Source of the DNA: an uncultured Gemmatimonadales bacterium
GTDB lineage: Bacteria > Gemmatimonadota > Gemmatimonadetes > Gemmatimonadales > GWC2-71-9
Length of the DNA: 46,866 bases
Direction of reading: 5' to 3'
Assembly: GCA_963844035.1 (NCBI GenBank)
Contig: CAWJMT010000034.1
Coordinates: 1 to 46,866, forward strand
In this document: positions 27,125 through 46,866 of the stretch, piece by piece
Layout of the letters: each line of letters begins with the position of its first letter
Position numbering within the stretch: position 1 is the stretch's first letter
Translations under genes and position numbers: made by a program
Notes under the pieces: model-generated
The model's database searches: none
The model's input: only the letters and a program-made list of their open reading frames with translations
Told to the model about the DNA's origin: nothing

Positions 27125-27163
27125 TTGACTTGGTATAACAGCCGTAATATAACACCTGGAATA
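27125..27163 (+). promoter_or_regulatory. Sigma70-type promoter overlapped by two putative TetR operators
   Basis: TTGACT (27125-30)-N17-TATAAC (27148-53). Quasi-palindromes TATAACAGCCGTAATA (27134-49) and TATAACACCTGGAATA (27148-63). Confidence 0.7.
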
Positions 27164-27184
27164 AATAACCGCTAGGGGGAGCGC

Positions 27185-28672: not shown

Positions 28673-28713
28673 TAGTTCACACTGACCAGGGAATCCGTTC
28701 AAGGGGGAAGACG

Positions 28714-30387: not shown

Positions 30388-30411
30388 AGGGCGAAAGGGA
30401 CAAGGCGATCG

Positions 30412-31392
30412 GTGTCAGCCGCGGCGATGAGCAAGTCGATGGCAGGTAGAGGCGGACGAGGCGCCCTGAGGTGGGTGGTGGCTCCGCTCGCCACGATCCT
30501 GGTGGCATCCTTCATCGTCTTCGCGGCAATCGCCGCCGCGCCGGGCGACCCTGTGGCCCGGATGCTCGGGGCCAAGTCGACCTTGGCGCAGCGAGCTGCG
30601 CTACGGCATGAGCTTGGCCTCGACCAGGCTCTCGTGGAGAGGTACTGGCACTGGCTGACCGGCCTCGCGCAAGGCGACCTTGGCTCGTCCCTCACCTACA
30701 AGGCGCCCGTCACGACTCTGCTCTCCGGTCGGGTGTCCGTGACGCTCTTCCTCGTCATCTACGCAGCCATCTTGGTGATTGCGGTAGGCGTGGGGCTCGG
30801 CATCGTGGGAGGCGCGTTCAGGAAGATGGGCTCTCCGGTCGCCGGCCTCACAGCCGTCGGAGTCGCCGTGCCCAGCTTCGTCGCGGCACAAATCTTGGTA
30901 GCTGTCTTCGCGCTCGGACTCGGGTGGTTCCCGACGATTGGCGCGGGCGACAGTTTCGGAGACCGCGTCTGGCATCTCACACTGCCGGCCATTGCGCTTG
31001 CGATAGGGGCGGGCGCCTACGTCGCGCAAATCACACGCGCGTCCGTCTTCGAGGAGCGCTCTCGCGAGCACGTCGAGGTCGCCCGCGGACGTGGCGTCCC
31101 TGAATCCGTCATCTTCCGTCGCCATGTGCTGCGGAACGCCTTCGTGCCCATCATGACGGTCTCCGCTATGACTGCTGCTGGGCTGATCGCAGGGGCTGTG
31201 GTCGTCGAGTATGCGTTTGGTCTCAGTGGGCTCGGCTCACTGCTGGTCGAAAGCGTCTCGAACAAGGACTACGACGTGGTCCTCGCAATCGTCATGTTCC
31301 TGCTCATCGTCTTCGTGGCGACGATGGCATTGATCGACATCGTGCAGATCCTCGTGGATCCCCGTTTGCGCGACAGGGGGACGACCTCATGA
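30412..31392 (+). CDS. ABC permease (DppB/OppB-like)
   Basis: APGDP, GDLGSS, ARGRGV...RHVLRNA, DPRLR. The start may be 30428 or 30439. Confidence 0.93.
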   Translation: MSAAAMSKSMAGRGGRGALRWVVAPLATILVASFIVFAAIAAAPGDPVARMLGAKSTLAQRAALRHELGLDQALVERYWHWLTGLAQGDLGSSLTYKAPVTTLLSGRVSVTLFLVIYAAILVIAVGVGLGIVGGAFRKMGSPVAGLTAVGVAVPSFVAAQILVAVFALGLGWFPTIGAGDSFGDRVWHLTLPAIALAIGAGAYVAQITRASVFEERSREHVEVARGRGVPESVIFRRHVLRNAFVPIMTVSAMTAAGLIAGAVVVEYAFGLSGLGSLLVESVSNKDYDVVLAIVMFLLIVFVATMALIDIVQILVDPRLRDRGTTS

Positions 31393-32258
31393 GTCAAGTG
31401 GCCATGCCCCGCCCCAGACGCCTTTCCTTGGGAGCGCGTCTTGGCCAGACCGTCAAGGAAGACCCGGTGCTCCTCATCTCCGGCGCTCTTTGTCTCCTGC
31501 TCGTGCTGCTCATCTTCGCAGGGCCTCTCTTGGCGCCCAACGACCCGAGACAGACGGATATCCTGAATGCGAATCAGGGGACCTCCGGTGCGCATTGGTT
31601 GGGGACCGACCAACTTGGACGAGACATCCTGTCCCGGGTGCTCTACGGGGCGCGGGCAAGCCTGGTGGGCGCTGCGGTGGTCGCTGTCTTCGGAGCTGTA
31701 CTCGGGACAGCCATGGCGATCGTGTCCGCTTGGTACGGCAGGTGGGTGGACAGCGGTTTGATGTACTTCGCGAACATCCTGTTCGCGGTGCCGGCCATAC
31801 TCATCGCCATCGTGGCCGTCGCGGCGTTCGGAGCGGGCCTTCTCGCTCCCGTGATCGCCCTGTCGATCGCATACGCGCCCTACTACGCGCGAGTCATGCG
31901 CGCCATCGCCGTTCAGGAACGGACGAAGCCCTACATCGAGGCGAACCTCTTGGCGGGGTTCTCGATTCCGCGCATTTGGCTGTATCACTTCCTGCCGAAC
32001 ATGCGGCCCATCCTGATCGCGCAGGTGACGGTCTGCTACGGGTTCGCCCTCCTCGATCTCGCGGCGATCTCATTCTTGGGCTTCGGCGTCCAGCCGCCCA
32101 CTGCCGAATGGGGTCGCATGGTGTCGGAGGCGCGCTCGGCTCTTCTCAATGGCTACCCGCAGGCGGCGCTTTCGGCCGGGGCCATGATCGTGCTTGCGGT
32201 GGTCGCTTTCGTCGTCTTCGGCGAGAGGCTCTCGGCCCGAGCCAAGAGGGACGCATGA
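31389..32258 (+). CDS. ABC permease (DppC/OppC-like)
   Basis: HWLGTDQLGRDILSRVLYGARASL; SFLGFGVQPPTAEWG. Confidence 0.94.
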   Translation: MSQVAMPRPRRLSLGARLGQTVKEDPVLLISGALCLLLVLLIFAGPLLAPNDPRQTDILNANQGTSGAHWLGTDQLGRDILSRVLYGARASLVGAAVVAVFGAVLGTAMAIVSAWYGRWVDSGLMYFANILFAVPAILIAIVAVAAFGAGLLAPVIALSIAYAPYYARVMRAIAVQERTKPYIEANLLAGFSIPRIWLYHFLPNMRPILIAQVTVCYGFALLDLAAISFLGFGVQPPTAEWGRMVSEARSALLNGYPQAALSAGAMIVLAVVAFVVFGERLSARAKRDA

Positions 32259-33265
32259 GTGATCAGGCTCGCGGGCCGCTGCTCACCGTCGAGCATGTGA
32301 GTCTTGCTCTCAAAGTGCGTGGCGGGATGCGGAGGATACTGCAAGACATCTCCAGCTCCGTTCGCGCCGGTGAGTCTGTCGGCTTGGTCGGCGAATCCGG
32401 CTCCGGCAAGAGCATGACCATCAAGACGATACTGAGGCTCCTCCCCCCCGGTGCCCAGGTTGTCGGGAATGTGACTTTCGACGGTCAGCCCGTGCTTTCG
32501 ATGACCGGGTCGGCTCTCCGACGCTATCGTGCCCGCGACGTCGCGATGATCTATCAGGATCCCCGAGTGAGCGTGAATCCGCTGCGCACCATCGAAGACT
32601 TCCTGCTCGAGGGGCTGGTGACGGTGAATGGGATTGCTCCAGCGCAGGCCAGAGAGGCCGCCATCGAGCAGCTGCTTCAAGTCGGGATCCCCGACGCCGG
32701 GCGCCGGCTGCGGCAGTATCCGCACCAGCTGTCCGGTGGGCTGCTGCAGCGCGTCGTGATTGCCGCAGCGCTGCTGACTCAGCCTCGACTCATCCTTGCC
32801 GACGAGCCTACTACGGCCCTCGACGTGACCACCCAGGAGGAAGTCGTAGCCATCCTCGACGAGCAGCGCCGCGAGAGAGGCCTCGCCATGCTGTTTGTGA
32901 GTCACAATCTCGATCTCGCCGCCGCTGTGACGGACCGCATCGTCGTCATGTATGCAGGCGCGATTGTGGAGGACGCATCCTCCGCCGGCTTCTTCGAGAC
33001 CGCGCTTCATCCGTATGCCAGGGGTCTGCTGGCGGCGCGGCCGGGGATTCGTCGTGTCGATCGCCTCGCCGTAATACCCGGTCGGCCGGCCGCGGCGTTC
33101 GAGGTCGGTGACGGTTGCGTCTTTGTTGACCGCTGCGCCTATGCCGACGATCGCTGCAGGATGACGCGACCGCAGCTGCGCCCCGTCGCGGACCACCTCG
33201 TCGCCTGCCATCGAGTCGAGGAGCTCGTGGGGCAGGGACTCTATGAGGGAGTGACGATCGCGTGA
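32255..33265 (+). CDS. ABC ATPase (DppD/OppD-like)
   Basis: ATGA overlap; GESGSGKS, YPHQLSGG, ADEPTTALD, C-terminal Cys motif. Confidence 0.94.
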   Translation: MSDQARGPLLTVEHVSLALKVRGGMRRILQDISSSVRAGESVGLVGESGSGKSMTIKTILRLLPPGAQVVGNVTFDGQPVLSMTGSALRRYRARDVAMIYQDPRVSVNPLRTIEDFLLEGLVTVNGIAPAQAREAAIEQLLQVGIPDAGRRLRQYPHQLSGGLLQRVVIAAALLTQPRLILADEPTTALDVTTQEEVVAILDEQRRERGLAMLFVSHNLDLAAAVTDRIVVMYAGAIVEDASSAGFFETALHPYARGLLAARPGIRRVDRLAVIPGRPAAAFEVGDGCVFVDRCAYADDRCRMTRPQLRPVADHLVACHRVEELVGQGLYEGVTIA

Positions 33266-34107
33266 GCGCCCTGCTGAAAGTGGACTCACTCCGCAAGGTG
33301 TTCTCGGTGCGCGGCCGCGATGGCGGGGCCGAAGAGCTCGTCGCAGTTGACGACGTCAGCTTCGTGGTACCGCACTCAGGATCGCTCGCCATCGTCGGCG
33401 AATCCGGTTCGGGCAAGACCACTGTGGCGCGCATCATCGCCGGCTTGGAGACGTCTACGGCGGGCGTCGTCACAGTGGAAGGGGCGCAGCGTGAAGGCGG
33501 TCGTCTGTCATCAAAGACGCGCCGACTCCAGGCACGCCAGATCCAGATGGTGTTCCAGGACCCTTACTCGTCACTGGATCCCCACCAGTCCGTGGACGCC
33601 GCCATCTCTGAAGTGCTTCGCGAGCATCTCGGCCTCGACCGCAGGGCGCGCAAAGAGCGCGTGACCGAGATCCTCGAGATGGTGGGACTGGACGAGCGGC
33701 ACCTGGCCGCGCTGCCACGCGCGCTCTCAGGGGGACAGCGGCAGCGCGTCGCAGTCGCCAAGGCCCTTGCCGTCAGTCCTCGCCTCCTGATCCTTGATGA
33801 GGCGGTCTCCGCTCTGGACGTAAGCGTGCAAGCCCAGGTGCTCAACATGCTCGCCGATCTCCGCACTACGCTCGAGGTCGCCTTCCTGTTCATCTCCCAT
33901 GACCTCGGTGTGGTGCGGCAGATCAGCGAGGAGTGCGTGGTCATGTACCACGGAAGAGTCGTCGAGGCGGGGGCCACGGACGAGGTTCTACGCAGTCCGA
34001 CCGACCCGTACACGCAGCAGCTTCTTGCGGCCATTCCCGAGCCCGGCTGGCGACCGCAGCGGCACAATGCCGGTGGACGGCAAACGACAGAGGGGCGGAC
34101 GGCATGA
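33262..34107 (+). CDS. ABC ATPase (DppF/OppF-like)
   Basis: GESGSGKT, LSGGQRQR, LDEAVSALDVSVQAQ. Confidence 0.94.
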   Translation: MSALLKVDSLRKVFSVRGRDGGAEELVAVDDVSFVVPHSGSLAIVGESGSGKTTVARIIAGLETSTAGVVTVEGAQREGGRLSSKTRRLQARQIQMVFQDPYSSLDPHQSVDAAISEVLREHLGLDRRARKERVTEILEMVGLDERHLAALPRALSGGQRQRVAVAKALAVSPRLLILDEAVSALDVSVQAQVLNMLADLRTTLEVAFLFISHDLGVVRQISEECVVMYHGRVVEAGATDEVLRSPTDPYTQQLLAAIPEPGWRPQRHNAGGRQTTEGRTA

Positions 34108-35552
34108 CGACTACTGGGGGCGACGACCTCTGCTACATGACCGCGACCGAGTTGGCCAGAGCGTTTCACTCGCACACGACTTCCCCGGTTGAACTAGTCA
34201 CGGCACTTCTCGATCGCATCGAACGCCTGAACCCCAAGGTCAATGCATTTGTCACGCTCCTCGGCGAGCAGGCGCTCGCACAGGCTGAAGCCGCGGAGAG
34301 ACGCCTGATGTCCGGAGAGACGGTGGGACCGCTCTGCGGTCTTCCCGTGATGGTGAAGGACTTGACGCCGACCGCAGGCGTGAGAACGACGTTCGGATCA
34401 TGTCACTACTCGGAGTATGTCCCGAAGGAGGATGCTCCCATCTGGGCGCGGCTGAAGGCCGCGGACGCCATCCTCCTCGGCAAGACGACGACCCCTGAGT
34501 TCGGAGAGCACTCGATCACCGAGAGTCCGCTCACGGGCGTCACCAACAACCCGTGGGATCTCTCGCGTACGGTGGGTGGCTCGAGCGGCGGCTCTGCTGC
34601 AGCACTGGCGGCAGGATTCGGACCTCTCGCCACCGGGAGCGACGGCGGCGGCTCGATACGGGTGCCATCCGCCTTCTGCGGCGTCGTCGGCCTCAAGCCT
34701 TCGCCGGGTCGCATACCGCTGGGTCCCGAAGGTTCTCCTTACGACACCGTGTCAGTGGTCGGCCCCATGACACGGACGGTGGCCGACGCCGCCCTGCTGC
34801 TGACCGCGGTCGCAGGCCCCGACCCGTACAATCCGGTGTCCCTCCCCGAGCAGGGGGTGGACTACCTGGCCCTGCTCAAGAACGCCTCTGTCAAGGGTCT
34901 GCGAGTCGCATTCAGCCCCGACCTGGGCAACCCTCCCATCGAGAGTGGTGTGAGTGCTGCACTGGAGCGCGCAGCAGAGGCGTTCGAGCGGGAACTCGAG
35001 GCGGAAGTCGAGGAGGTCGATCTTCAGCTGCCGGACCCCTTCGACTACTTCGTGCATTGGTGGGCGCCTCAGATCGCCCTGGAGTTCGATGAGTTCGTCA
35101 CTTCGATTGGCGCCGACCCAAGTGGAAGCCATCCTCTCTTCCAGGAGGTCGTCGCAGAGGGCCGAGCCATGTCAGCCGTCGAGTATGCGCAGGTTCAATA
35201 CAGGCAACGCGCCAGGATCCACAAGGCGTTCGCAGAGGTATTCGCTGACTACGACCTGCTCCTCATGCCGACGACGCCTATGGCAGCCTTTCCTCATCCA
35301 GGTCCAGAGGGAGGACCGCTTGAGGTGGCGGGCAGATCCTCGAATTACCCAGCGCTTGAGAATCAACGCTGTACCGAGGCCATTGCGCACGCCGGCTACC
35401 CCGCCATTACGGTCCCCTGTGGATTCACGCAAGAGGGCCTGCCTGTAGGGCTGCAGATCGCCGCTGGCCATGGGCGTGACGCAGACGTTCTCCGCGCCGC
35501 AGCAGCATTCGAGCGGGCCACACCCTGGCAATCTCGCCGGCCCCTGCTTTAG
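34104..35552 (+). CDS. Amidase signature family enzyme
   Basis: GLPVMVKD (Lys), GGSSGGSAAA, GSDGGGSIRVPSAFCG. Confidence 0.95.
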   Translation: MTTTGGDDLCYMTATELARAFHSHTTSPVELVTALLDRIERLNPKVNAFVTLLGEQALAQAEAAERRLMSGETVGPLCGLPVMVKDLTPTAGVRTTFGSCHYSEYVPKEDAPIWARLKAADAILLGKTTTPEFGEHSITESPLTGVTNNPWDLSRTVGGSSGGSAAALAAGFGPLATGSDGGGSIRVPSAFCGVVGLKPSPGRIPLGPEGSPYDTVSVVGPMTRTVADAALLLTAVAGPDPYNPVSLPEQGVDYLALLKNASVKGLRVAFSPDLGNPPIESGVSAALERAAEAFERELEAEVEEVDLQLPDPFDYFVHWWAPQIALEFDEFVTSIGADPSGSHPLFQEVVAEGRAMSAVEYAQVQYRQRARIHKAFAEVFADYDLLLMPTTPMAAFPHPGPEGGPLEVAGRSSNYPALENQRCTEAIAHAGYPAITVPCGFTQEGLPVGLQIAAGHGRDADVLRAAAAFERATPWQSRRPLL

Positions 35553-35659: not shown

Positions 35660-35944
35660 TGCCGACATGCTGCTGACGAGACGTCTCGCCACGGCTGAGT
35701 ATGCGCCATCGCTCGAGGTCATCGCCCCTCGCCAGAACCTTGGACTGTGCAGCACTTTCGCGTCCCGGCCACCACCCGGCGACACCGCAGTCTGACGACT
35801 GCAAAACCTCCATCAGCGGTTCGACTCCGCTCGCCGCCTCCAACAACTTCCCTGCATCTGGCGATTTCCGGTCGTGCGCACCTGCGCACAGAACTTCCGA
35901 ATCGGCAGGACTGCCGACATTCGGCCGACGAGACTCGGCGGCAT
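35660..35944 (+). repeat. attP-like site 1 (arm - tRNA-Cys core - arm)
   Basis: TGCCGAC-N4-TGCTGAC at 35660, GTGCAGCAC at 35747, core 35799-35842, TCGGCA-N4-TGCCGAC-N4-GGCCGAC at 35902-35929. Colinear with 41970-42251. Confidence 0.8.
35799..35842 (+). pseudogene. tRNA-Cys(GCA) 3' half only (att core)
   Basis: CTGCAAA anticodon loop, T arm AGCGG-TTCGACT-CCGCT, acceptor 3' strand and TCCA. No 5' acceptor strand or D arm upstream. Confidence 0.88.
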
Positions 35945-36090
35945 ACGGTGGTACTGCTGCGCATGAGGCGCATGAGGCGTGACAGTCAGGGCGACGTTCC
36001 CCACCCGCGCGGACTGGTTACACTGCAGGGACGAGCTCTGCCTGGGGCGCCGTGCCGGCTCTCCCGGTAGAGTGCGCGTGAGACCTGGAG

Positions 36091-36705
36091 GTGGCGTTGG
36101 CCTCGATCCCTGCTGGAACGTTGGTCCGTTTCCGCGCCAAAGAGATGGCGCGGCTGCGCTTCCCGCCTCCTTGCGCCGAGGCGGGCATCGCCGTGCACCC
36201 CGACGCCCTGCGTGCGCCGCAGAACGGACTGACGCTTGCCGCGTGCGCAGATGCCGCACGCTGCCTGCAGTGGGTCGGCGCCGTGGATGAGCAGATGCTG
36301 CTGCCCACCGCTGAGCGGGGCGCGTCGCTGCGCGCGGCGATCCTTGAGCGACTGCTCGTCGGCGGCCGCAGCTGGCAGGTGGTGCGGCCCGGACTGCTCA
36401 CCACTGCCGGCGTTGGCGATCCCTACCTGACGCTCTACGCAGGGGAGCGGCCCTGGGTGGTGCTCGGCGAACTCGAGGATGGCCAGCTGCTGGCCGCTCC
36501 TTTGAACGGTGTTCTCGGTAACCCGAAATGGTTCGCCCCGCAGGTGGCCGCGCGACACCTGCTGTTCCCCGGCGCCAGGGCCGCGCAGCTCGAGCTCGCG
36601 CACCTGTGGTCGCTTCCGGCGACGCTCCGGAGCAGCGGCGTGGTCCACGGCGATGCCCACGCCGATCTCGGCTGGTCGCTGATCGAGTACTACGCGGCGG
36701 ACTGA
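36091..36705 (+). CDS. Hypothetical protein, C-terminal half possibly PemK/MazF-like
   Basis: 204-aa ORF; ERPWVVLG...LLAAPLN...QLELAHLWSLP pattern. Fold assignment by eye only. Confidence 0.55.
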   Translation: MALASIPAGTLVRFRAKEMARLRFPPPCAEAGIAVHPDALRAPQNGLTLAACADAARCLQWVGAVDEQMLLPTAERGASLRAAILERLLVGGRSWQVVRPGLLTTAGVGDPYLTLYAGERPWVVLGELEDGQLLAAPLNGVLGNPKWFAPQVAARHLLFPGARAAQLELAHLWSLPATLRSSGVVHGDAHADLGWSLIEYYAAD

Positions 36706-36847
36706 GGCCGCGCTCACTGCTAGCGGCCACAAACATGAGGGGCGTCGCATCACCCGGCGCGTGGCTTCCCGTGCTGCCGCCCTCCCCGTGCCCGCAGAGG
36801 TCAGTCGGCCGACTCTCCTCCTCGAGGGCCTTGCCGTCCACCGAAGC

Positions 36848-39800
36848 CTAGCCCGTTGCCGGCGTGTAGGGGTACGCCGCGAGTCTGGCTTTGACGGTCA
36901 GCAGCCGGTGACCCCTGTAGAGCTTCACCGTGACGATGTCGCCCGGCTTGTGGCCGTCGAGGACCTTGTTGTACTCGCCCTCCGAGCGCACGGCTTTGCC
37001 GTCGACAGCGACGATGATGTCGCCACCGGTGACGAACTGCCATTCGCCGAGGTAGGGATGCGTGACCATCTTGACGCGCGTCCCGCCGCGGATCCCCGCT
37101 CGCGCAGCGGGCCCCCCGGGGTCCACGATCTCGACAAGGAAGCCCCGCGAGACCGGCAGCCCGAGGGCTCTTGCGTTTCCAGGGGGATTGTTGACCGTGG
37201 CGCCCTCGAAACCCAGCCACGTCTTGCGCCCGCCGAGGCTTTGGCTCGCTAGGTAGATGAAGTCGTGGATATACCCGATCGCCACGGCGGAGTTGGCGAC
37301 AGAGCTTGAATGGTCGCCGGTCGGGTCGTTGAAGCGCAGCCACGGGATCGGGCCGACCCAGCCGATCACCTTCCCGCTGGTGGCGATCAGCGGTGCGCCG
37401 ATGCTGTAGGCGTCGAGTTGGGAGTCCGTGCGCAGCGCCGTGACGGTCTTGGCGCGGGTCGACCCCGTCAGTTCCTGGTGCCACACCGCGGTCAGGTGCA
37501 TCGGGGTGCTTTCCAGCGTGGGGAACAGACCGAAGCGGCGCAGCATGACGACCGGCTCGCCGACACGGGCCTTGCCGGCATCACCCTCACCCAGTGGGAT
37601 CGGCACCAGGTGGACCTTGCGCGGGTCGACGGCGATGAGTGCGCAGCCGGTAAACGACCCTTCGTCGTGGATGACGAGGCCCCTCACCTTGGTGTACTGG
37701 CCGTTTGCTCCCCAGAACTCGCAGATCACCCACAGGGGGTGGATGGGGAGATAGACGTTCCGCACCATGGGGCCGTGCCGATACGAATCACCCACGAGTG
37801 CGGTGCTGGTGGCGATCAGGCCACTCCTGGAGATGACGAAGCCCGTGCCCTGGACCTTCTTCCATCTGAGCCTGCCGTCGACGGCAAGCAGGACTCTGGA
37901 CGTGATCTGCACCACTCCGGGGCCGTACTTGTCCCGGATCTGGCTGGCCGTCATCCTGACCGGCCCCGGTGCGTTCGCATGGTCGAACCCGAACATCCAG
38001 AGCGCCAGCCCCGCGGCTGCCGACGCTGCGAGCACAGCGACTGCCGCCACGAGTAGTGGGGCGCGGCGCCTGAGCGTGCGCCGGGTGCGCCGCGAGAGCA
38101 GCCAGCGGCGCCTGGGGCGCTGGGCCTCCGCTGCCACCCGCTCGGCTCGCGCGAAGTGGGCCGCGGCGGCCGTGGCGTCAAGGGGCGCCGCGCGGCCGCC
38201 CGCGAGCTCCAGATAGCGGGCGGTGGGCTCGGCGAGTTCGTCCTCGAGCTCGAAGAGGCCCGCGGCGGTCGCCATCTCCAGGGCGGTGCCGTAGTGGAAT
38301 GCCAAGATCTCGGCGAGGTCCTCGGTGCGGCCTGCAGTCCGTTCCTCCAGCCATCTCGCGAGGCGGGCGTGCTTGGCCGCCCTGTCCGCGAGCGTGAGCT
38401 GGGAGTAGGCGACGTCGCGGACCAGGGCGTGCACGAAGACGAACTCGGTCTCGCCTTCGATCGAGGAGGCGCGCTCGGGACGCACGAGCTCCTTGGCGAC
38501 CAAGTCGTAGAAGCCCTCGAGGACGTCGGCGAACTCATGCGGGCCCACCGCTGCGACCGCCCCGGCCCAGAAGCTGCGACCGACCACGGCAGCGTCGGCG
38601 AGCAGCGCCTTGCGCTCCGCTGACAGCAGCTCGAGGCGGGCGGCGATCAGCGCGCCGATCGAGTCGGACACCGGCAGCTCGGCACCCTCTTTGAGCGCGA
38701 CGGTGCCGCCGCGCCGCACGAGCAGGTCGCGGTCTTCCAGCAGCCGCACCAGTTCCTCGGCGAAGAGGGGGTTGCCGCCGGAGGCCTCGAGTAGCTTGGC
38801 CTGCAAGCTCACCGGCAGCGACCTGGTGCCGAGACGGGTCAGGAGCAGCTGAGAGGTCTCCTCGCCGGAGAGAGGGCCGAGGACAAGGTGGGTGGCCGCC
38901 GCCACGAAGCCCGCGCCGGGGCCGCCAAGCTCCGTTACCTCTGGCCGGGCACTGGCCAGCACCAGCAGGGGCAGCCGCGCGGTGCTCTTCGCCAGGAAGT
39001 CCATAAAGGCGAGCAGCGCCTCGTCAGCCCAGTGCAGGTCCTGGACGACGATGATGGCAGGGCCGGAGGCGGCGAGGCCCTCGAGGAACTCCCGCCAGGC
39101 GGCGAAGTTCTCCTCGCGGCCCGCCTCCTCTGCCTCGAGGCCCACGAGCGGCCGCAGGCGGGCTCGCAGCCGGTCACGGTCGCTCGTGTCGGGCAGGACG
39201 CTCTCCAGGCGCGCCTCGGCCCGAGCTACGTCGTCGCTCTCCAGGATGCCGGCCGAGTCGCGCACGATCTCGGAGAGAGCCCAGAAGGTGACGCCGGGGC
39301 CGAAGGGCAAGCAGCGGCCCTCACGCCAGGTCACGACTTGTGGCAGGTCGTTCAAGCGGCGGGCGAACTCGGCCAGCAGGCGGCTCTTGCCGATGCCCGG
39401 CTCGCCGACGACCAGGGCGAAGCGGGGCTCGTGTTCGCCGATGGCTTCATCGACCAGAGCATGCAGGGCGACAAGCTCATCTTCGCGGCCGACGAAGGGA
39501 GAAGCGAAGCTGCGCAGCTCGGAGCCGGTGCGGGCCAAGGGCGCAGTGGCGATCCAGGCAGAGAGGGGCTTGGACTTGCCCTTGAGCGTGACCGGGTGGC
39601 AAGGCTCGAAGGAAAAGACCCTCTCAGTGGCTACGTGCGTGAGTTCGCCGACCGCCACCGCCATCGGCGGGGCCGCGGATTGCAGGTGAGCGGCGACGTT
39701 GACGGCGTCACCGGTGAGAAGCCCCTCGCCGGAAGCGGGGTCGACGTCCAGGCGCACCAGCGCTTCGCCGGTGGTGATGCCGACCCTGACCTCCACCGCC

Positions 39801-40144
39801 TGGCCGCCGATGCCCGGCAATGCGTCGACCTCGTCGATCAGGCGCAGACCGGCTCTCACCGCCCGCTCGGGGTCATCCTCGTGCAGGGTGGACACGCCAA
39901 AGACGGCGACCACGGCATCGCCGATGAACTTCTCCAGCGTCCCGCCGTACGACTCGATCGCCTCGCGAGCCACGGCGTGGTAGCGGCGCAGAAAGCCGTC
40001 GATAAGCTCGGGGTCGTTGCGCTCGGAGAGCGACGTGAAGCCGACCAGATCGCAGAAGAGGGTCGTGACGATCCGGCGCTCCTCGGAGCGGCGCGCAGTG
40101 GGCTCCTGCCGGCCGGGCGAGGACGATGGCGTGTCGGGATCCAC
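36848..40144 (-). CDS. Class III nucleotide cyclase + STAND/AAA ATPase + TM + HtrA-like pseudoprotease + PDZ
   Basis: [83 protein letters not shown]...PGGPAARAGIRGG...GDIIVAVDG. Confidence 0.88.
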   Translation of the reverse strand: MDPDTPSSSPGRQEPTARRSEERRIVTTLFCDLVGFTSLSERNDPELIDGFLRRYHAVAREAIESYGGTLEKFIGDAVVAVFGVSTLHEDDPERAVRAGLRLIDEVDALPGIGGQAVEVRVGITTGEALVRLDVDPASGEGLLTGDAVNVAAHLQSAAPPMAVAVGELTHVATERVFSFEPCHPVTLKGKSKPLSAWIATAPLARTGSELRSFASPFVGREDELVALHALVDEAIGEHEPRFALVVGEPGIGKSRLLAEFARRLNDLPQVVTWREGRCLPFGPGVTFWALSEIVRDSAGILESDDVARAEARLESVLPDTSDRDRLRARLRPLVGLEAEEAGREENFAAWREFLEGLAASGPAIIVVQDLHWADEALLAFMDFLAKSTARLPLLVLASARPEVTELGGPGAGFVAAATHLVLGPLSGEETSQLLLTRLGTRSLPVSLQAKLLEASGGNPLFAEELVRLLEDRDLLVRRGGTVALKEGAELPVSDSIGALIAARLELLSAERKALLADAAVVGRSFWAGAVAAVGPHEFADVLEGFYDLVAKELVRPERASSIEGETEFVFVHALVRDVAYSQLTLADRAAKHARLARWLEERTAGRTEDLAEILAFHYGTALEMATAAGLFELEDELAEPTARYLELAGGRAAPLDATAAAAHFARAERVAAEAQRPRRRWLLSRRTRRTLRRRAPLLVAAVAVLAASAAAGLALWMFGFDHANAPGPVRMTASQIRDKYGPGVVQITSRVLLAVDGRLRWKKVQGTGFVISRSGLIATSTALVGDSYRHGPMVRNVYLPIHPLWVICEFWGANGQYTKVRGLVIHDEGSFTGCALIAVDPRKVHLVPIPLGEGDAGKARVGEPVVMLRRFGLFPTLESTPMHLTAVWHQELTGSTRAKTVTALRTDSQLDAYSIGAPLIATSGKVIGWVGPIPWLRFNDPTGDHSSSVANSAVAIGYIHDFIYLASQSLGGRKTWLGFEGATVNNPPGNARALGLPVSRGFLVEIVDPGGPAARAGIRGGTRVKMVTHPYLGEWQFVTGGDIIVAVDGKAVRSEGEYNKVLDGHKPGDIVTVKLYRGHRLLTVKARLAAYPYTPATG

Positions 40145-40159
40145 CTCGTGCTCCTTGGG

Positions 40160-41417
40160 CTAGCGTGGAGCCCGGACCTGCGTCGGGGTGAGCCTGTCGG
40201 AGGTGTCGCCAAGGCCGAGTTGGCCGAAGCGGTTGAAGCCCCAAGCCCAGAGGCTGCCGTCCTTCTTCAACGCCAGGGTGTGGTAGGAGTCGGCGCCGCC
40301 GGGTGCGATCGCCGCCCAGTCGCGGGCGCTGCCGACCTGCGTCGGGCTGGACCTGTCGGTGGTGTCGCCCACGCCGAGCTGGCCGTGACTGTTCTCGCCC
40401 CAAGCCCAGAGGGTGCCGTCCTGTCTTCAGAGCCACGCTGTGGTGGCCAAGGCAGTAGGCCGCCGCCCAGTCATTCGAACTACCCACCAGGGTCGGGACC
40501 CTTCGCTCGATGGTGTCGCTCAGGCCGAGCTCACCGAAGTCGTTGTTGCCCCAGGCCCACAGGGTGCCGTCCTTCATGAGAGCCAGGCTGTAGCCCATGC
40601 CGGCCGAGACGGCTGTCCAGTCTTGGGCGCCCCCGACCTGGGTCGGGCTGTGTCTGTCAGTGTTGTCGCCAAGGCCGAGGTTGCCGTAGGTGTTGGAGCC
40701 AAATGCCCACAGAGTGCCGGACTTCTTGAGCGCCAGCGAGAAGTCACCGCCACCCGCGGCCGACGCCCAGTCCGTGTCGTGACCGACCTCGGCCGGGGAC
40801 CATCCCCAGTCGGTGTTGCCCACGCCGAGAGCGCCGTACCAGTTGGGTCCCCAGGACCAAAGGGTGCCGCCCTTCCTCATGGCGAGGCCGTGCTCGTAGC
40901 CGGGGAAGACGGCCGTCCAGTCGTGGGCGTGGCCGACCCGGGTAGGGGTCCATCTGTCGACGCTGGTGACGAAACCTGGAGCTGGAGCCTGTACCCGGCC
41001 GCGGCCAAGGCCGAGGTTGCCACCCCAATCGCTGTTGTTGCCCCAGGCCCAGAGGGTGCCGTCCTTCTTCAGGGCAAAGCTGTCGGCATAGCCGCCGGAG
41101 ACGGCCACCCAGTCGTGCGCTTGGCCGACCTGCCGGGGGGTGGCGTGCGCGGTGAAGTCCAGGTTGCCTTGGCCGAGCTGACCGTAGTCGTTCAGGCCCC
41201 AAGCCCAGAGGGTGCCATCCTGCTTCAGGGCCAAGGTGTTGTAGGAGGCGGCGGCCACGGCCGCCCACTCCCCTGTTCCGATTGCCGGGCTCGTCGCCGG
41301 TGCGAGACTCGTCGCCGGCGCGGCGCTCGTCGCCGGCTCGGCCGCGGCCATCTTCTGCGCACAGCCGGCCAGCAGAAGCACGCCAGCAAGCAGGACTAGT
41401 GCGCCAAGACGCTTCAC
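40160..41417 (-). CDS. RCC1/BLIP-II repeat beta-propeller lipoprotein (one frameshift near 40425)
   Basis: Lipobox LLAGC; repeated ALKxDGTLWAWGxNxxGxLGxG units; ORF 40160-40372 supplies the last repeat. Confidence 0.9.
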
Positions 41418-41969
41418 AGAAGCTCTCCCGCCAACCTGCTGAAAGGTGGGCGTGGCCGGTAGGGTGCCTTCGGCGGATCAACGGCTTCCTTGCGGACCGT
41501 CGCTCCGCATCTTATAGCCACCTGTACCTCGCGCGTCGCCAGTCCAAGCGGCGGTGCTGTTGGCGGGATGAGCCGGGAGGCAGGGTCACGAGGAAGGCTG
41601 GAGAGTCGACCGCACACAAGGCGATGCTGGCATGCCGGCATCAGCATCATCACGATCGGAGACGACAACCAAGGTGAGAATAGCCTCCGAGGCGACAATT
41701 AGTGGGCCACCAGCGACACCCGGGTCCCGCGTCACGGGGACGATAGCAGGCGATTCGGGTTGGGCCATGTGCGATCTGCGACCGACCCTACAGATCTTCC
41801 TCATCAAGTGTGAGTGATTGCCCTGAGGGGCCTCGGATATTTGACTGTCGGCAGACCCCTGCAGGTACGTGGGCCGGCTCCAATCGCTGAATCGGCAAGG
41901 AGCGGGCTCAAGACAGACGTTCGAGGCGAGGGCCGCCTTGCTGGGCCATCGTCTCGGCACCACCGCCAC

Positions 41970-42251
41970 TGCCGACGCATTGCTGACAAGCGGTGTCGTC
42001 ACAGTTCAGTACGGCTGGGTCGACCACGAATGGTGGCCGTTGGGACACCAGGACCGTGCAGCACAATCGCATCTGGCTGACTACAACTGCGCATCGCCAA
42101 CCGACGTCTGCAAAACCTCCATCACCGGTTCGACTCCGGTCGCCGCCTCCAATCTTCTTCCCGCAAATGAGCGCTTTCTGGCGGTTGCCCTGCGCCCATT
42201 CCCTTCCGATTCGGCACGGTTGCCGACATTGCCGACGAGAAGCGGCAGCAT
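41970..42251 (+). repeat. attP-like site 2 (arm - tRNA-Cys core - arm)
   Basis: TGCCGAC-N4-TGCTGAC at 41970, GTGCAGCAC at 42056, core 42108-42151, TCGGCA-N4-TGCCGAC-N2-TGCCGAC at 42211-42236. Confidence 0.8.
42108..42151 (+). pseudogene. tRNA-Cys(GCA) 3' half only (att core)
   Basis: 42/44 identical to 35799-35842. T arm ACCGG-TTCGACT-CCGGT. No 5' half. Confidence 0.88.
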
Positions 42252-42418: not shown

Positions 42419-43129
42419 ATGAGCAGCGATCCACCCGAAACGACGACGCCCGGGGATGACGTCCTCCTGATCGCCTGCCCGGCCGTGCTCGGCGAGCTTG
42501 CCGACGGTGCCACCGACGGCGTGCGCACCGCGACGCTCGAGGCGCAGCTCCACATCAGCCCGGAGCGTCTCAAGGTGGCAATGAGGGCCGCGGTGGCCGA
42601 CGCCGACAAGCCAGGAGTCACCATCGTGCTCGGCTACGGCCTGTGCTCGAACGCCGTGCTGGGCCTCAAGACCGAGCACGCCACTCTTGTGGTGCCAAGG
42701 GTGGACGACTGCATCGCGATGATGCTGGGCTCGAACGAGGCGTTCGCCGCCGAGTCGGCCAAGGCGCGCGGCTCCTACTACGTGGCCAAGGCCTATCTGG
42801 ACGAGTGCGACACCATCATGAGCGAGCACGAGAAGCTCGTGGAGAAGCGTGGGGTCGAGCGCGCCGAGAGGATGATGCGCCTGCTGCTGGAGCACTACAC
42901 CCGGATCGTGCTGATCAATACCGGCCGCTACGACGTGGAGCCCTCCCGGGCGCGGATCACCCCGTTCGCCGAGACATTCGGCCTGGAGATCGAAGAAGTG
43001 GCCGGGACCACGCGCATCCTGGACGCGCTGGTGGAGGGCGGCTGGGACGACGATTTCGTTGTCGCCCCTCCGGGTCATGAGCTCACGCTGCGGGACTTCC
43101 GGCCCGAGCTGTTCGCCGGCGACTCCTGA
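42419..43129 (+). CDS. DUF1638 domain protein
   Basis: LIAC, LHISPERL, IVLGYGLCSN, PRVDDCIAMMLGS, YTRIVLINTG; corrinoid gene context. Confidence 0.88.
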   Translation: MSSDPPETTTPGDDVLLIACPAVLGELADGATDGVRTATLEAQLHISPERLKVAMRAAVADADKPGVTIVLGYGLCSNAVLGLKTEHATLVVPRVDDCIAMMLGSNEAFAAESAKARGSYYVAKAYLDECDTIMSEHEKLVEKRGVERAERMMRLLLEHYTRIVLINTGRYDVEPSRARITPFAETFGLEIEEVAGTTRILDALVEGGWDDDFVVAPPGHELTLRDFRPELFAGDS

Positions 43130-43174
43130 GCTCGGCAAGGTCTCCGCCATGCGAAACGCGCTCGCGGTCTGAGG

Positions 43175-43846
43175 TCAGACCTCAGGCTCGTCGCCCGCCG
43201 ATTCACGTTTGCCGGCGACCACGCGCTGGCAGATCCTGACGCCCTCCATGGCGTTTGAGCTCCAGGAGTCGGCGCCGACGTAGTCGCGCACGGCCTCGTC
43301 GACGATCCCGCCGCCCAGGATCACGAACGGCGGCGGCGCGAGCTTCGGCTCGGCCTTCAGCAGGGCGGTCGTCCCCTTCATGCTGGAGAAGGACGCCGTG
43401 ATCAGGCCAGAGAGGCCGACGATGTCTGGGCGCCACTCGAGGGCCGCTTCGACGAACGCGCCCGGCGGCACGTCGATCCCGATGTCGTACACGGTGAAGC
43501 CGAAGCTGCGCAGCATCGTCGCCATGAGGTTCTTGCCGATATCGTGGATGTCGCCGGCGACGGTGCCCAGCAGCACCCTGCCCGACGCCTCGCCGACCAG
43601 CTCGCGCTCGAGTTGCGGCTGGACCGTCGCCAGCACTTCGCTGAAGATCTCGCCGGCGAGGATGAGGCCGGAGAGGTAGTACTCCTGTCGCTGGTAGCGC
43701 TCACCGATCACGCGCATGGCCTGATCGCAGGCGTGGACGAGCGAGAGCGATGGCTCGTCCCGAGCGAGCGCCTCCTGCACGAGTCTGAGCGTCTCGTCCT
43801 CGTCCAGCTCGATGAGAGCGTCGGTGATCGCCTTCAGCTGATCCAT
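43175..43846 (-). CDS. Cobalamin-binding (corrinoid) protein
   Basis: Cap domain plus GTVAGDIHDIGKN and IVGLSGL. Confidence 0.93.
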   Translation of the reverse strand: MDQLKAITDALIELDEDETLRLVQEALARDEPSLSLVHACDQAMRVIGERYQRQEYYLSGLILAGEIFSEVLATVQPQLERELVGEASGRVLLGTVAGDIHDIGKNLMATMLRSFGFTVYDIGIDVPPGAFVEAALEWRPDIVGLSGLITASFSSMKGTTALLKAEPKLAPPPFVILGGGIVDEAVRDYVGADSWSSNAMEGVRICQRVVAGKRESAGDEPEV

Positions 43847-44557
43847 GGCGCCTCCTCGGCCACCGGGTGGCCGGGCCCCACGTGCGTCTCAAGAGACACC
43901 TGGTCGGCGCGGCAGAGGAACCATCCCCAGCTCACGGGCCGTGCGTCGAAGTCGTAGAAGACGTGCTCGAGACAGAGGGCGGCGGCGCCGGTCTCCTCAT
44001 CGAGCGCCGCCGCCGCCTTGTCGTCCAGATTGACGGCGCTGATGCGAAGCCGTCCCCAGCGAGAAGCCGTCGCCGCCGGAGGTCTGCAGCAGGCCCTCGA
44101 GCGACGTGATCTGGAGCTGGGATTCCACCAGCGGCCGCCGGGCATCGAACACCACGTGCTCGTGGTGATAGGCGAGCGGCACGCCTCGCCGCGACAACAG
44201 GCGCCGGAGATACACGGTGCGGCGGCCGACGGGAAGCTGCAGCACGCCGGCGACCCGCTCGCTGGCCCTCGCGGTGGAGGCCGCGAGGAGACGCACGTCC
44301 ACGGAGCCATCCTGCCACTGACTCGTGATCTGGTGGAGGCGGAACGTGGCCACGCCGAGGTCCAGCGAGCGCACGAACGTGCCGCGGCCCTGCTCGGCGC
44401 TCACCACGCCGCGTTCCTCGAGCACCGCGAGTGCGCGCCGCAGGGTCATCGGGCTGACACCGAACTCGGCGCAGAACTCCGATTCGGAAGGCAGGCGGTC
44501 GCCGGGGCGGTAGTCGCCGCGTCCGATGCGCTGCCTGATGGCATCGGCGATCTGCAT
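43834..44557 (-). CDS. GntR (HutC/UTRA) family regulator (frameshift near 44050; start may be further upstream)
   Basis: YRPGDRLPSESEFCAEFGVSPMTLRRAL...QGRGTFV, followed by a UTRA-like domain. Confidence 0.9.
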
Positions 44558-44674
44558 GTAGGGATGCGTCTTGACAGCTCCGTCGGCGCCAGGTCTCGCG
44601 GCCTGCTGCCGCCTTCGCCGCCACTCCTGTCCCCATCAGCCGTCGTCACCCAGATAGTCGGGTCACTGTTGCTA

Positions 44675-44690
44675 ACTTCTCTAGAGAAGT
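44675..44690. promoter_or_regulatory. Perfect 16-bp palindrome, probable GntR operator
   Basis: ACTTCTCTAGAGAAGT in the divergent intergenic region. Confidence 0.65.
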
Positions 44691-44768
44691 CTATTCTGCT
44701 GCGCACAGCGCCCGCAACTGTTGCGGGGGCATCCTTCCACGGAAGGTCGAGCGAAGGGAGGCACCGCA

Positions 44769-45401
44769 TTGGGCACGACGGATCTTGCCCAGGCCTTGGG
44801 TGATCTGCAGGAGTCCGAAGTGATCGCCGGTGTCGAGGCGGAGCTCTCCGCCGGCAAGGATCCGATGGCCATCCTCGCAGAGGTCCAGGCGGGCATGGAG
44901 ATCGTAGGAAAGCGGTTCGAGGACGGCGAGTACTACCTCTCCGAGCTCCTCTACGCCGCCGACATCTTCAAGAAGGTCAACGCCCCGCTGGCCGAGAGGC
45001 TGCAGGGCCGCAAGAGCGAGACGCTGGCCACCATGGTGCTCGGCACCGTGAAGAACGACATCCACGAGTTCGGCAAGGACATCGTGGCCACGATCCTGAC
45101 CTCCAACGGCGTCGAGGTCATCGACCTGGGCATCGACGTCGACTACGACAAGTTCGTCGCCGCCATCCGCGAGCACCGGCCCCAGTTCGTCGGCCTCTCC
45201 TGCATGCTCACGACCGTCTTCAGCGACATGAAGGCGACCGTCGAGGCGATCGAGCAGGCCGGCCTGAGGGACTCGGTGCAGATCTACATCGGCGGCGGCC
45301 CCGTGGATGAGTCGCTGGCGAAGCACGTCGGCGCGGACCTCTATTGCCGCACCGCTCAGGACGCGGTCGTGGGCATGAAGAAGTACCTGGGGGTGAGCTG
45401 A
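44769..45401 (+). CDS. Cobalamin-binding (corrinoid) protein
   Basis: AGGGAGG RBS + TTG; GTVKNDIHEFGKD, FVGLSCML, IYIGGG. Confidence 0.92.
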   Translation: MGTTDLAQALGDLQESEVIAGVEAELSAGKDPMAILAEVQAGMEIVGKRFEDGEYYLSELLYAADIFKKVNAPLAERLQGRKSETLATMVLGTVKNDIHEFGKDIVATILTSNGVEVIDLGIDVDYDKFVAAIREHRPQFVGLSCMLTTVFSDMKATVEAIEQAGLRDSVQIYIGGGPVDESLAKHVGADLYCRTAQDAVVGMKKYLGVS

Positions 45402-45403
45402 CG

Positions 45404-46513
45404 ATGGCTGACGCAGCCACACAGCAGCTGCTCGAAGTGCACGAGCGGCGCATCCGCGACGCGGTCGCCCTGAAGACCCCGGATCGCGTCCCCGTGGTGC
45501 CGGTCGGGGACGCCTTCACCGCCCATGTCGCCGGAGTCAAGGTGTCTGAGTTCTGCACGGATCCGGTCGTCGCGTACAAGACGATGGTCGAGGTCTTCAC
45601 CGGCCTGGGCGAACTGGACGGCATCCAGCACGCCGGCTACAACGTGAACCTGCTGAGCATCATCTGGCTGTCCAAGGTCAAGATCCCCGGCCGCGATCTC
45701 GGCGAGAACGATGACTGGCAGGTCCAGGAGTCTGAGTTGATGACGGAGGCGGACTACGACGCCATCATCGACGAGGGTTTCGGCTCGTGGGTGGAGCGCT
45801 ACTACGCGGAGCGACTCCCCGGCGTGGCGGAAGGGTTCGGCGGCTTCGTCCAGTCCCTGCCCGACGCCTTCGCGGCGTGGCGCGATAAGGGGGTCGTCGT
45901 CTTCAGCCCCGTGGTCACGACGATTCCCTACGAGTACTTCTGCGGCGGGCGCTCCATGCAGAAGTTCATGCTCGATCTGCACCGCCGACCGGACAAGGTC
46001 CAGGCCGCCATGGATGCGTCGATGCCCTTCCTCAAGGAGCAGATGCGCCAGCTCATCCGCGGCTTCTCGCTCACGGGTCTGTGGCTCGGCGGCTGGCGCT
46101 CGGCGAGCGAGTTCCTCTCGCCGCGCCTGTGGGAACGCTTCGTGTTCCCGTACTACAAGGAACTGGCCGATGTCGCCGTCGAAGAGGGCGCCATCCCCGT
46201 CCTCCACTTCGACGCCGACTGGACGCGCGACCTCGAACGCTTCAAGGAGTTCCCCAAGGGGAAGTGCGTCCTGTCGCTGGACGGCAAGACCGACATCTTC
46301 AAGGCCAAGGAGGTGCTCGGCGACCACATGTGCCTCATGGGCGACGTGCCGGCGCGCATGCTTTCCCTGGGCACCCCGCAGGAAGTGACCGACTACTCCC
46401 ACCGGCTCATCAACGAGGTCGGACCGGGGGGCTTCATCCTGGCGCAAGGCTGCGACATCCCGCCGGACGCGAAGTACGAGAACGTCAAGGCGATGATCGA
46501 GGCCGTCCTGTAA
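45404..46513 (+). CDS. URO-D/MtaA superfamily protein, probable corrinoid methyltransferase
   Basis: PDRVPV, FLSPRLWERFVFPY, CLMGDVP...GTPQEV, GGFILAQGCDIP. Confidence 0.88.
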   Translation: MADAATQQLLEVHERRIRDAVALKTPDRVPVVPVGDAFTAHVAGVKVSEFCTDPVVAYKTMVEVFTGLGELDGIQHAGYNVNLLSIIWLSKVKIPGRDLGENDDWQVQESELMTEADYDAIIDEGFGSWVERYYAERLPGVAEGFGGFVQSLPDAFAAWRDKGVVVFSPVVTTIPYEYFCGGRSMQKFMLDLHRRPDKVQAAMDASMPFLKEQMRQLIRGFSLTGLWLGGWRSASEFLSPRLWERFVFPYYKELADVAVEEGAIPVLHFDADWTRDLERFKEFPKGKCVLSLDGKTDIFKAKEVLGDHMCLMGDVPARMLSLGTPQEVTDYSHRLINEVGPGGFILAQGCDIPPDAKYENVKAMIEAVL

Positions 46514-46523
46514 AGCGAAGGGA

Positions 46524-46561
46524 GCGCCGCGGCGCCCGGCCGCAGCCGGGCGCCGCGGCGC
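46524..46561 (+). other. Perfect 17-bp all-GC hairpin between co-oriented genes
   Basis: GCGCCGCGGCGCCCGGC-CGCA-GCCGGGCGCCGCGGCGC; no U tract. Confidence 0.7.
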
Positions 46562-46572
46562 CGTGACTCTCC

Positions 46573-46866
46573 ATGGACCTTCTGCTCTTCTCGGGTTTCC
46601 TCGGGTCGGGGAAGACGACCCTCATCCTGGCCTTGGCGCGAGAACTCGCCGCGCAGGGACGGCGGACGGCGTTCGTCGTCAACGAGGTGGGCGAGGTCGG
46701 CGTGGACCAGGCCGTGATGCGCGACGACGGCCTCACGGTCTACGAGATCACCGCCGGCTGCATCTGCTGCCAGCTGGGCGTCGATCTGGTCAAGACCCTC
46801 GAACTGCTGGTCGAGCAGGAGCGTCCCCAGACGGTGATCGTCGAGGCGAGCGGCGTGGCAACGCCG
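46573..46866 (+). CDS. CobW/COG0523-type GTPase (runs off window)
   Basis: FSGFLGSGKTT, VVNEVGEVGVD, AGCICC, VIVEASG. Confidence 0.9.
   Translation, partial: MDLLLFSGFLGSGKTTLILALARELAAQGRRTAFVVNEVGEVGVDQAVMRDDGLTVYEITAGCICCQLGVDLVKTLELLVEQERPQTVIVEASGVATP

Follow-up and report, generated by a model that had tools for sequence, protein, structure and literature searches.

The window analysed here is the whole of contig C34 (46,866 nt; GenBank CAWJMT010000034.1), one of 39 contigs in the 3.47-Mb bin assembly (G000) of an uncultured Gemmatimonadales bacterium. Its right-hand part contains two attachment (att) sites of tRNA-Cys type, each composed of a P arm, a core and a P′ arm, and these bound a unit of 6.3 kb. 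On the left the unit is preceded by a block with ATP-binding cassette (ABC) transporter and amidase genes, and on the right it is followed by a block of corrinoid genes. The features of the sites, together with a degenerate core further left, are as follows.

35,660-35,798, forward strand: P arm of junction 1, the right end of the ABC/amidase unit, with arm repeats at 35,660-35,677 and GTGCAGCAC at 35,747-35,755 (P profile 94.9 bits; the profile includes this site)
35,799-35,842, forward strand: core 1, the 3′ half of tRNA-Cys(GCA) from the anticodon loop onwards (T-stem allele AGCGG/CCGCT)
35,843-35,939, forward strand: P′ arm of junction 1, the left end of the 6.3-kb unit, a hairpin followed by arm repeats at 35,912-35,929 (P′ profile 74.9 bits; the profile includes this site)
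41,970-42,107, forward strand: P arm of junction 2, the right end of the 6.3-kb unit (P profile 92.9 bits)
42,108-42,151, forward strand: core 2, tRNA-Cys 3′ half (T-stem allele ACCGG/CCGGT)
42,152-42,246, forward strand: P′ arm of junction 2, the left end of the corrinoid unit (P′ profile 65.5 bits)
26,213-26,228, forward strand: degenerate third core with a CAAG-type loop, cut off in the T stem (found with a 16-letter core motif)
26,040-26,188, reverse strand: five TGCCGAC copies (two pairs and a single one), inverted relative to the other arms and located just ahead of the third core

The repeat pair TGCCGAC-N4-TGCTGAC starts at 35,660 and 41,970 (139 and 138 bp ahead of the cores), GTGCAGCAC starts at 35,747 and 42,056 (52 bp ahead of each core) and TGCCGAC appears again 70 bp past each core. 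Both 44-bp cores begin at the anticodon loop CTGCAAA, and the core-to-core distance is 6,309 bp. The sites are identical at 206 of 285 positions. Given the identity of the P arms (87/139) and P′ arms (77/102), the spacers have diverged yet are still homologous; the cores agree at 42 of 44 positions, the two differences being a compensatory pair in the T stem. TGCCGAC-N4-TGCTGAC has two copies in the whole assembly, both at these sites, and the P and P′ profiles score both sites with E-values of 1e-17 to 1e-26 and find nothing comparable in the rest of G000; the sites are therefore not chance matches.

Tyrosine integrases that target anticodon loops leave a recognizable layout, in which the 7-nt loop marks the onset of identity to the tRNA and is flanked by core-type inverted repeats. 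This layout is observed here: identity to the tRNA starts at the 7-nt loop, with core-type inverted repeats on both sides (GAGGT-CTGCAAA-ACCTC on the tRNA side; GACGT- or GACGA-CTGCAAA-ACCTC on the P side). Both sites are arm-core-arm junctions, intact and internal, left by tandem integrations into the anticodon loop of tRNA-Cys. An earlier reading made from the letters of the window (the sequence-only reading) had described them as such, and its coordinates, its spacings and its colinear repeats of ~285 bp were all correct on direct reading; the same family of sites occurs in the Thermoleophilia arrays described below. The sequence-only reading missed two elements of the setting, the degenerate third core and a probable chimeric joint near 18,730.

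With at most one mismatch, the 16-letter core motif matches only the third core and the two full cores in G000, and no further att copies were found in the bin. The third core ends after CATCACC, and cores of metagenome loci L207 and L243 end at the identical point; a homologue of the small open reading frame (ORF) after the third core is present in genome G111, within its tRNA-Cys island. The third core is likely the decayed left boundary of the ABC/amidase unit. The beginning of the P′ arm at junction 1 (35,843-35,911) folds as a hairpin (z −3.7), which may act as a terminator for the tRNA transcript in cases where the unit is tRNA-proximal.

Searches outside the bin placed the sites in a large family. 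The arm-repeat and loop pattern had 61 matches in GTDB genomes, and 21 of these proved to be real sites (12 with the label Thermoleophilia and 6 from other Actinomycetota). The 40 others were dropped as chance or coding matches: many of those in Alphaproteobacteria are a single conserved gene, and L058 and L059 were judged by title and the visible end of their records. In metagenomes a strong P arm was present at 46 of 52 loci. Among 89 genomes of the Thermoleophilia order concerned, 64 had a core match and 36 at least two cores, while a reversed-pattern control gave 0. A tRNA-Gly/tRNA-Cys pair stands at the start of the array in 19 genomes (where the start was fetched); in G061 seven cores are spread across 155 kb behind this pair. 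The T-stem allele of core 1 is also found in the intact tRNA-Cys genes of G065 and G105. Viral contigs gave one chance pattern match and no relative of the integrase.

The identical arm type and integrase family also form arrays at tRNA-Arg(CCT) (G061:C7:23960, G127:C1:468624, G073:C5, G062:C6, G115:C4 and G108:C13); the array of G127:C1 has more than 25 integrase tails in ~83 kb. A loop variant, CTGCAAG instead of CTGCAAA, recurs in non-anchor cores of many genomes (including G061:C6:369926, G063:C23:189630, G099:C3:854896, G105:C5:114739, G107:C2:810355 and G144:C4:217472), and may lock old junctions or mark a subfamily. At five metagenome loci (L032:10001-10182, L203, L206, L231 and L240) a full P arm and loop are fused to ACCTCCAGCAGATT rather than to tRNA-Cys; we regard these joints as a recurring secondary target or a second core type.

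The cognate enzyme of these arrays is a phage-type tyrosine integrase of ~410 residues, with PF00589, SAM_3, a weak Arm-DNA-bind_4 and PHROG 1 matches and 6en0 as the best solved-structure match (E 6e-16). Judging by the anatomy of the sites and by what is generally known of the family, it would bind the TGCCGAC arms and cut in the loop. The three tyrosine recombinases of the bin are at most 25-33% alike to it. In relatives the order of a unit is core, P′, cargo, integrase, backbone and P; the integrase lies inside the unit and is convergent on P′, its stop codon abutting P′ in L050 and G145. The backbone past the integrase in unit 1 of G062:C4 encodes a regulator, an AlpA/excisionase-like protein, an AAA_25 primase-helicase, an SSB fragment and terS. 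The unit thus has all of integrase, regulator, primase-replicase and terS, a gene set like that of phage-inducible chromosomal islands (PICIs), and backbones of this kind are a feature of some autonomous units; no capsid morphogenesis gene was present among the five backbone proteins scanned. One candidate feature, a P arm encoding part of a split integrase as in SSV1, was rejected; the overlap seen in G061 is a stub abutting the core after loss of the P arm.

A census was made of 41 units with both arms visible, the window's unit included and units with a lost arm left out. A near-full integrase is present in 12 units, 3′ stubs only in 15 and another fragment in 1, while 13 units show no trace of the gene. 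Since the position of the integrase inside units varies and 10 of the 17 tRNA-proximal units have no full copy, it is not a fixed gene of a platform.

These results bear on the larger claim of the sequence-only reading, in which the ABC/amidase, cyclase/RCC1 and corrinoid blocks were cassettes moved by an integrase in trans, in an integron-like platform anchored on tRNA-Cys. The tyrosine integrase that it called for exists, in the units of relatives, and array content and order do differ between relatives. Anchoring on tRNA-Cys holds for the Thermoleophilia-type gene of the relatives, but the core is not the bin's own tRNA-Cys; likewise, profile scanning found many further copies in Thermoleophilia and, in the bin itself, none besides the degenerate core. 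The platform of dedicated integrase-less cassettes is not supported by the census, as the integrase is carried inside ordinary units, and integrase remnants within units, which that reading had itself named as refuting evidence, are present in relatives. The corrinoid block is complete in G111 at 87%, without an att arm in the 40 kb fetched. Cassette-like behaviour was expected at att junctions; it is observed instead at integrase-tail stubs. We conclude that the arrays arose by tandem accretion with decay, comparable to that of cis-mobilizable elements (CIMEs), and are not integrons.

The genes of the 6.3-kb unit and the blocks on either side are listed next.

36,091-36,705, forward strand: gene X (82-87% nucleotide identity to relatives)
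36,848-40,144, reverse strand: class III cyclase-AAA ATPase-trypsin-PDZ protein (Pfam)
40,160-41,417, reverse strand: RCC1-repeat protein, with a frameshift near the 3′ end (sequencing error or decay)
26,473-35,552: TetR, M28 peptidase, oligopeptide-type ABC transporter and amidase, the cargo left of junction 1 (Pfam)
42,419-46,866: DUF1638, two corrinoid proteins, UTRA regulator and MtaA/URO-D-like methyltransferase (Pfam; NCBIfam below cut-off), continuing past the contig end

As the sequence-only reading had stated, the unit encodes no recombinase. Six-frame searches with PF00589 gave three matches in G000, all outside the contig, serine recombinase profiles PF07508 and PF00239 gave 0 matches, and the cognate integrase had no match in the window by tblastn, blastn or a nucleotide hidden Markov model; the integrase-free span (18.7-46.9 kb) amounts to just 28 kb of a contig that is broken and probably chimeric. 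Gene X matched no family in Pfam, PHROG or NCBIfam, and its best Atlas score (0.81) is a lead only.

The left module of the unit, P′ plus gene X, is 82-83% identical in G118, G064 and G105, and gene X alone is 87% identical in G112. About 55 bp past gene X there is a full integrase in G118 and an integrase stub in G064, G105 and G112. In the window, likeness to relatives stops ~20 bp past the stop codon of gene X; the cyclase gene then follows and the integrase tail is absent. Because a full integrase follows the P′-gene X module in G118, and stubs follow this module in G064 and G105 and gene X in G112, the unit appears to have lost its integrase: by comparison of sequences, it is likely a former integrase-bearing element that kept both arms. 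The cyclase gene (up to 82% nucleotide identity to Thermoleophilia) occupies the position held by the integrase in autonomous units, and cyclase homologues are located directly past P′ in G082, G109 and G061:C7. In G109:C1:137,600-145,500 three consecutive cyclase-AAA paralogues fill a tRNA-proximal unit that has no integrase trace.

In the accretion model developed for Streptococcus ICESt1, CIMEs are elements that lost their integration genes and kept attL and attR (PMC5704250, accessible portion). The 6.3-kb unit retains both ends (P′ 74.9 bits, P 92.9 bits, cores intact) and has no integration or transfer genes; its decay from an integrase-bearing element is indicated by the comparison with G118, G064, G105 and G112. 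Pfam detected no PICI core genes in it.

Intact arms allow a different explanation, namely that integrase-less units are working satellite cassettes, excised and inserted whole by an integrase encoded elsewhere. It would account for the 13 units of the census that have both arms and no integrase trace, for their P arms being as strong as those of integrase-bearing units (median 89 vs 81 bits) and for the 10 of 17 tRNA-proximal units without a full integrase. The two T-stem alleles of the window's cores are each known in intact tRNA-Cys genes, and in G065 the proximal integrase-less unit has an allele differing from those of the cores behind it. We nevertheless hold this explanation to be quite unlikely. 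Among the matches listed in the 89 genomes none covers the window unit over its whole length, in G118 a full integrase comes after the left module, and no fixed integrase is found at the anchor. Moreover, the P′ arms of integrase-less units are weaker (median 35 vs 49), and the excised circle or empty site that such movement would produce was not seen in four thinly covering runs.

A probable chimeric assembly joint lies at 18,700-18,740, with Pirellulaceae-like DNA on the left and, on the right, a type I methyltransferase gene that starts mid-gene. The left ~18.7 kb is Planctomycete-like (metG is 73% identical at the nucleotide level to a Pirellulaceae genome). From 18,736 rightward the restriction-modification genes are 90% identical to those of G094, with ~290 bp of the gene's 5′ end missing, and the DNA on this side matches the order of the Thermoleophilia genome G061 at up to 90%. 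The bin's own tRNA-Cys (C11:15804) is only 81% identical to the core, which is a Thermoleophilia-type tRNA-Cys. On these comparisons, the contig is probably chimeric at ~18,730 and misbinned, joining Planctomycete-like and Thermoleophilia-type DNA in a bin of a third lineage.

A broken, probably chimeric contig would explain why the anchor tRNA and the remaining array are missing: a tRNA gene search of this contig found none, and an Rfam scan of 18,000-46,866 gave no match. With the contig probably misbinned, the lack of an anchor tRNA and integrase in the bin is uninformative about the true host. In 60 genomes of relatives on the Gemmatimonadota side matches went no further than the core. Each of the 18 loci scanned proved to be an intact tRNA-Cys gene; no arms were found at three tRNA-Cys loci read further.

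One could suspect that the two sites, or their spacing, are themselves an assembly artefact, given the probable chimera at ~18.7 kb and the many frameshifts on the contig. An artefact of this kind is scarcely credible: the two sites differ from each other at 79 of the 285 positions compared, G064 and G118 have site 1 and gene X in the same colinear arrangement over ~990 bp, and other soil runs contain near-identical pieces of the ABC, the cyclase and the corrinoid block together, though none of the pieces listed bridges a site.

The stubs that follow gene X in relatives belong to an abundant class, and serial stubs of this kind set cargo genes apart from one another. A whole-gene integrase profile applied to 43 stretches (1.93 Mb) detected the gene near-full in 23 copies, as a 3′ stub in 124 cases, as an internal piece in 17 and as a 5′ piece in one, after removal of matches below 18 bits and of one duplicated stretch; 123 of the 124 stubs are on the integrase strand. 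In the first region set, chosen mostly by cores, there were 45 stubs vs 8 other pieces. The median stub length is 129 bp (10th-90th percentile, 75-387 bp). Considering 44 stubs of the first set, 28 have a converging gene end within 250 bp, 5 have a gene pointing the other way and 2 abut P′, while for 9 no gene was called in the vicinity. Overall, most genes (649/1004) are on the tRNA strand. In five genomes searched whole, stubs were concentrated in few islands.

Orders of tail-bounded genes differ among G061, G064, G105, G118 and G127. Gene X is followed by an FmdB gene in G105 and by another gene in G064; a zinc finger gene precedes FmdB in G061, while in G118 FmdB precedes the other gene just mentioned. 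Some cargo genes seem by eye to retain their own promoter. At G061:C6 ~360,950-361,200 a gene ends 32 bp from an integrase tail; we take it to be similar to ribosomal protein S18, and it may be a housekeeping paralogue captured as cargo.

Stubs could be mere deletion scars that fused neighbouring islands and underwent no later recombination, the arrays being an ordinary graveyard of decayed islands. Long stubs directly against a P arm or core, as simple deletion would leave, were observed in 3 of 44 cases. Scars, however, would be inherited with both flanks. Ten stub clusters were found in which the 5′ joint and the gene beyond it are common, and the other flank was common to 0 of 12 pairs. 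In the 5′-joint clusters (n = 9, one within-genome duplicate left out) derived bases were common in the 5′ part at 31 of 474 positions, against a null of 0.018, with none of 2000 shuffles attaining this level, and in the 3′ part at 5 of 518 (null 0.013), i.e. at the null. In the 3′-cargo clusters (n = 14) it was the 3′ part that shared derived bases (62/1511; 0 of 2000 shuffles). Since the two halves of a stub track different neighbours, a crossover inside the tail fits and mere scars do not. One stub, G064_36829, is a visible hybrid. In addition, stubs retain the third-position codon bias of live genes, and only one 5′ piece was found. We therefore regard scars without later exchange as very improbable.

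The switch from one half to the other is mostly near the conserved Tyr-Ser-His-Ala-Ile-Pro-Ala codons, though switch points are not fixed (clusters R58, R94 and L42). Folding of three stubs and two P arms on both strands gave z-scores from −1.0 to +1.9, with no attC-like fold; only the P′ arm folds. As the switch points vary and the tails have no attC-like fold, homologous recombination is favoured over a fixed site.

An enzymatic alternative is that the integrase itself recombines the 3′-tail copies of its own gene, through a cryptic site or with low specificity, which would make the tail-bounded genes cassettes of an attC-free, integron-like system. We think it unlikely. In this alternative the last ~100 bases of the integrase gene would be recombined by the enzyme, cassettes would move among islands, tRNA sites and strains, and att junctions would move whole stacks, a scheme that we find doubtful. 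The extreme 3′ polarity of the pieces and the packing of single genes between them agree with it, as do the preference of the switch for the Tyr-Ser-His-Ala-Ile-Pro-Ala codons, the position of the longest or full integrase, usually last in each series, and one 5′ joint that the tRNA-Cys array and the tRNA-Arg array of G061 have in common. There is also a precedent: according to the accessible part of PMC8371274, the integrase of Thermococcus pTN3 carries out homologous-type recombination between repeats of ~100 bp, with identical segments down to 104 bp; such an enzyme can give products like those seen here, so that enzyme-driven shuffling is conceivable. The pTN3 enzyme is an archaeal suicidal integrase with its att site inside the gene, while here attP is outside the gene and the activity at tails is hypothetical. 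The wide spread of stub lengths (75-387 bp), the variable switch points, the absence of an attC-like fold in the three stubs and the absence of a clear core-type inverted repeat in the tail, by eye, all speak against this alternative.

The reading that we prefer, and hold to be reasonably probable, is that the window's sites are internal junctions of a Thermoleophilia-type tRNA-Cys array, that the 6.3-kb unit between them likely lost its integrase and that in relatives tail-bounded cargo has been reshuffled. Its history may have run as follows. A TGCCGAC-bound integrase would recombine in the 7-nt anticodon loop, and new arrivals would push older units downstream, leaving P-core-P′ junctions. 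An illegitimate joint or deletion would first link a cargo promoter to a truncated integrase tail; homologous-type crossover between tails (~90% alike), most likely by host RecA, would then move tail-bounded genes among units, arrays and strains. Units that have lost the integrase would persist as CIME-like passengers, open to excision by an integrase next to them. Gene X of the window would be such a tail-bounded gene, with its tail replaced by the cyclase gene.

Several observations weigh against this preferred reading. The window has neither stub nor integrase, so the tail mechanism is seen in relatives only and reaches the window via gene X. Stub counts are inflated by the second region set, which was chosen by tail search, and no part of the integrase gene is better conserved than the tail, which makes it the piece easiest to detect. 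Many near-full integrases are frameshifted in these assemblies. The crossover test comprised few clusters (9 and 14) whose kin are not independent, local alignments can run into common flanks and thereby inflate sharing at the edges, and the 3′-cargo clusters show weak sharing in the 5′ part too (37/1317, p 0.03). A perfect match of at least 23 bp is present in only 37% of random stub pairs, which is marginal for RecA. Finally, neither a 6,309-bp excision circle nor an empty-site joint was found in four runs of contigs, in which the region is thinly covered; the runs contain at most 0.20 of the words, and the result is thus no evidence of absence. In the one joint that ‘goes back 6282’ there are 27 foreign letters, and it appears to come from a different member of the family. 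No terminal repeats indicative of circles were seen in the 52 metagenome loci.

With respect to other features of the contig, the ABC/amidase cargo has a homologue (68%) located 24-29 kb downstream of tRNA-Cys in G112. At ~23,400-26,014 on the forward strand a methyltransferase-like gene is in frame with the end of a frameshifted hsdR, and its end adjoins the inverted arm repeats. In the Planctomycete-like part, four long Pfam-negative ORFs (1346, 662, 406 and 753 aa) occupy 9473-18664 on the reverse strand; they probably represent one or two very large proteins broken up by frameshifts. In G024, a relative of the bin, two intact tRNA-Cys genes are located on C50 at 68,900 and 96,208, with 27 kb between them and a repeated CTTCCCATTG motif near both.

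The hallmarks of an integron are the IntI integrase, the attI site and attC sites. The arrays resemble integrons in that their genes are short and for the most part co-oriented, have a repeat behind each of them and are shuffled between strains. They differ from integrons in that the cognate enzyme is not IntI (TIGR02249, 39.1 bits; cut-off 265), stubs and P arms have no attC-like fold and there is no fixed platform integrase.

Closer likenesses exist among tandem islands, as far as they are described in the accessible portions of the papers cited here. Arrays of integrative and conjugative elements, integrative and mobilizable elements and CIMEs likewise grow by repeated site-specific integration at the end of a single gene, with chimeric att sites inside the array and decayed members that retain att. 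In the arrays studied here the backbones that were inspected showed no sign of conjugation genes, the annotated autonomous backbone is PICI-like and cargo is bounded by copies of the integrase 3′ end. At ssrA of Dehalococcoides, 16 islands have and 15 lack the integration module (PMC3146451). Alike are the many tandem islands within ~100 kb of one RNA gene and the reverse-strand integrase adjoining attL, with its 3′ end at attL; the Dehalococcoides islands use a serine recombinase and tmRNA, whereas here we have a tyrosine integrase, tRNA-Cys and tRNA-Arg loops and long arm sites. The accessible text of PMC3146451 mentions no serial integrase tails for these islands.

Tycheposons of Prochlorococcus (bioRxiv 10.1101/2020.12.28.424599) are also tRNA-targeting elements with tyrosine integrases, with PICI-like and cargo types; later arrivals push elements into islands where partial tRNAs and fragmented integrases remain. 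Host and tRNAs are different, and here the fragments are nearly all 3′ tails with evidence of internal crossover. With regard to PICIs, whose core components are given in PMC10085698 (accessible part), unit 1 of G062:C4 is alike in having an integrase, an AlpA/HTH_17 regulator, an AAA_25 primase-helicase and terS; it differs in that no capsid gene was seen among the proteins scanned, and the window unit has none of these genes. In titles and abstract openings, mostly excluding subscription papers, we found nothing on serial integrase 3′ tails or on Thermoleophilia islands. The new element is cargo bounded by integrase tails; tandem accretion of islands itself was already known.

Taken alone, the window shows one unit without an integrase in a decayed tandem array, on a contig that is probably chimeric and misbinned. 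Its relatives show that such arrays, up to 155 kb long, are a main variable locus in a class of soil bacteria of which few have been cultured. Outside integrons there is little explanation of the way in which integrative elements acquire and exchange single cargo genes. In these arrays a short, conserved integrase tail marks gene boundaries and records crossovers in its sequence, and tail-bounded shuffling is a possible alternative to integrons.

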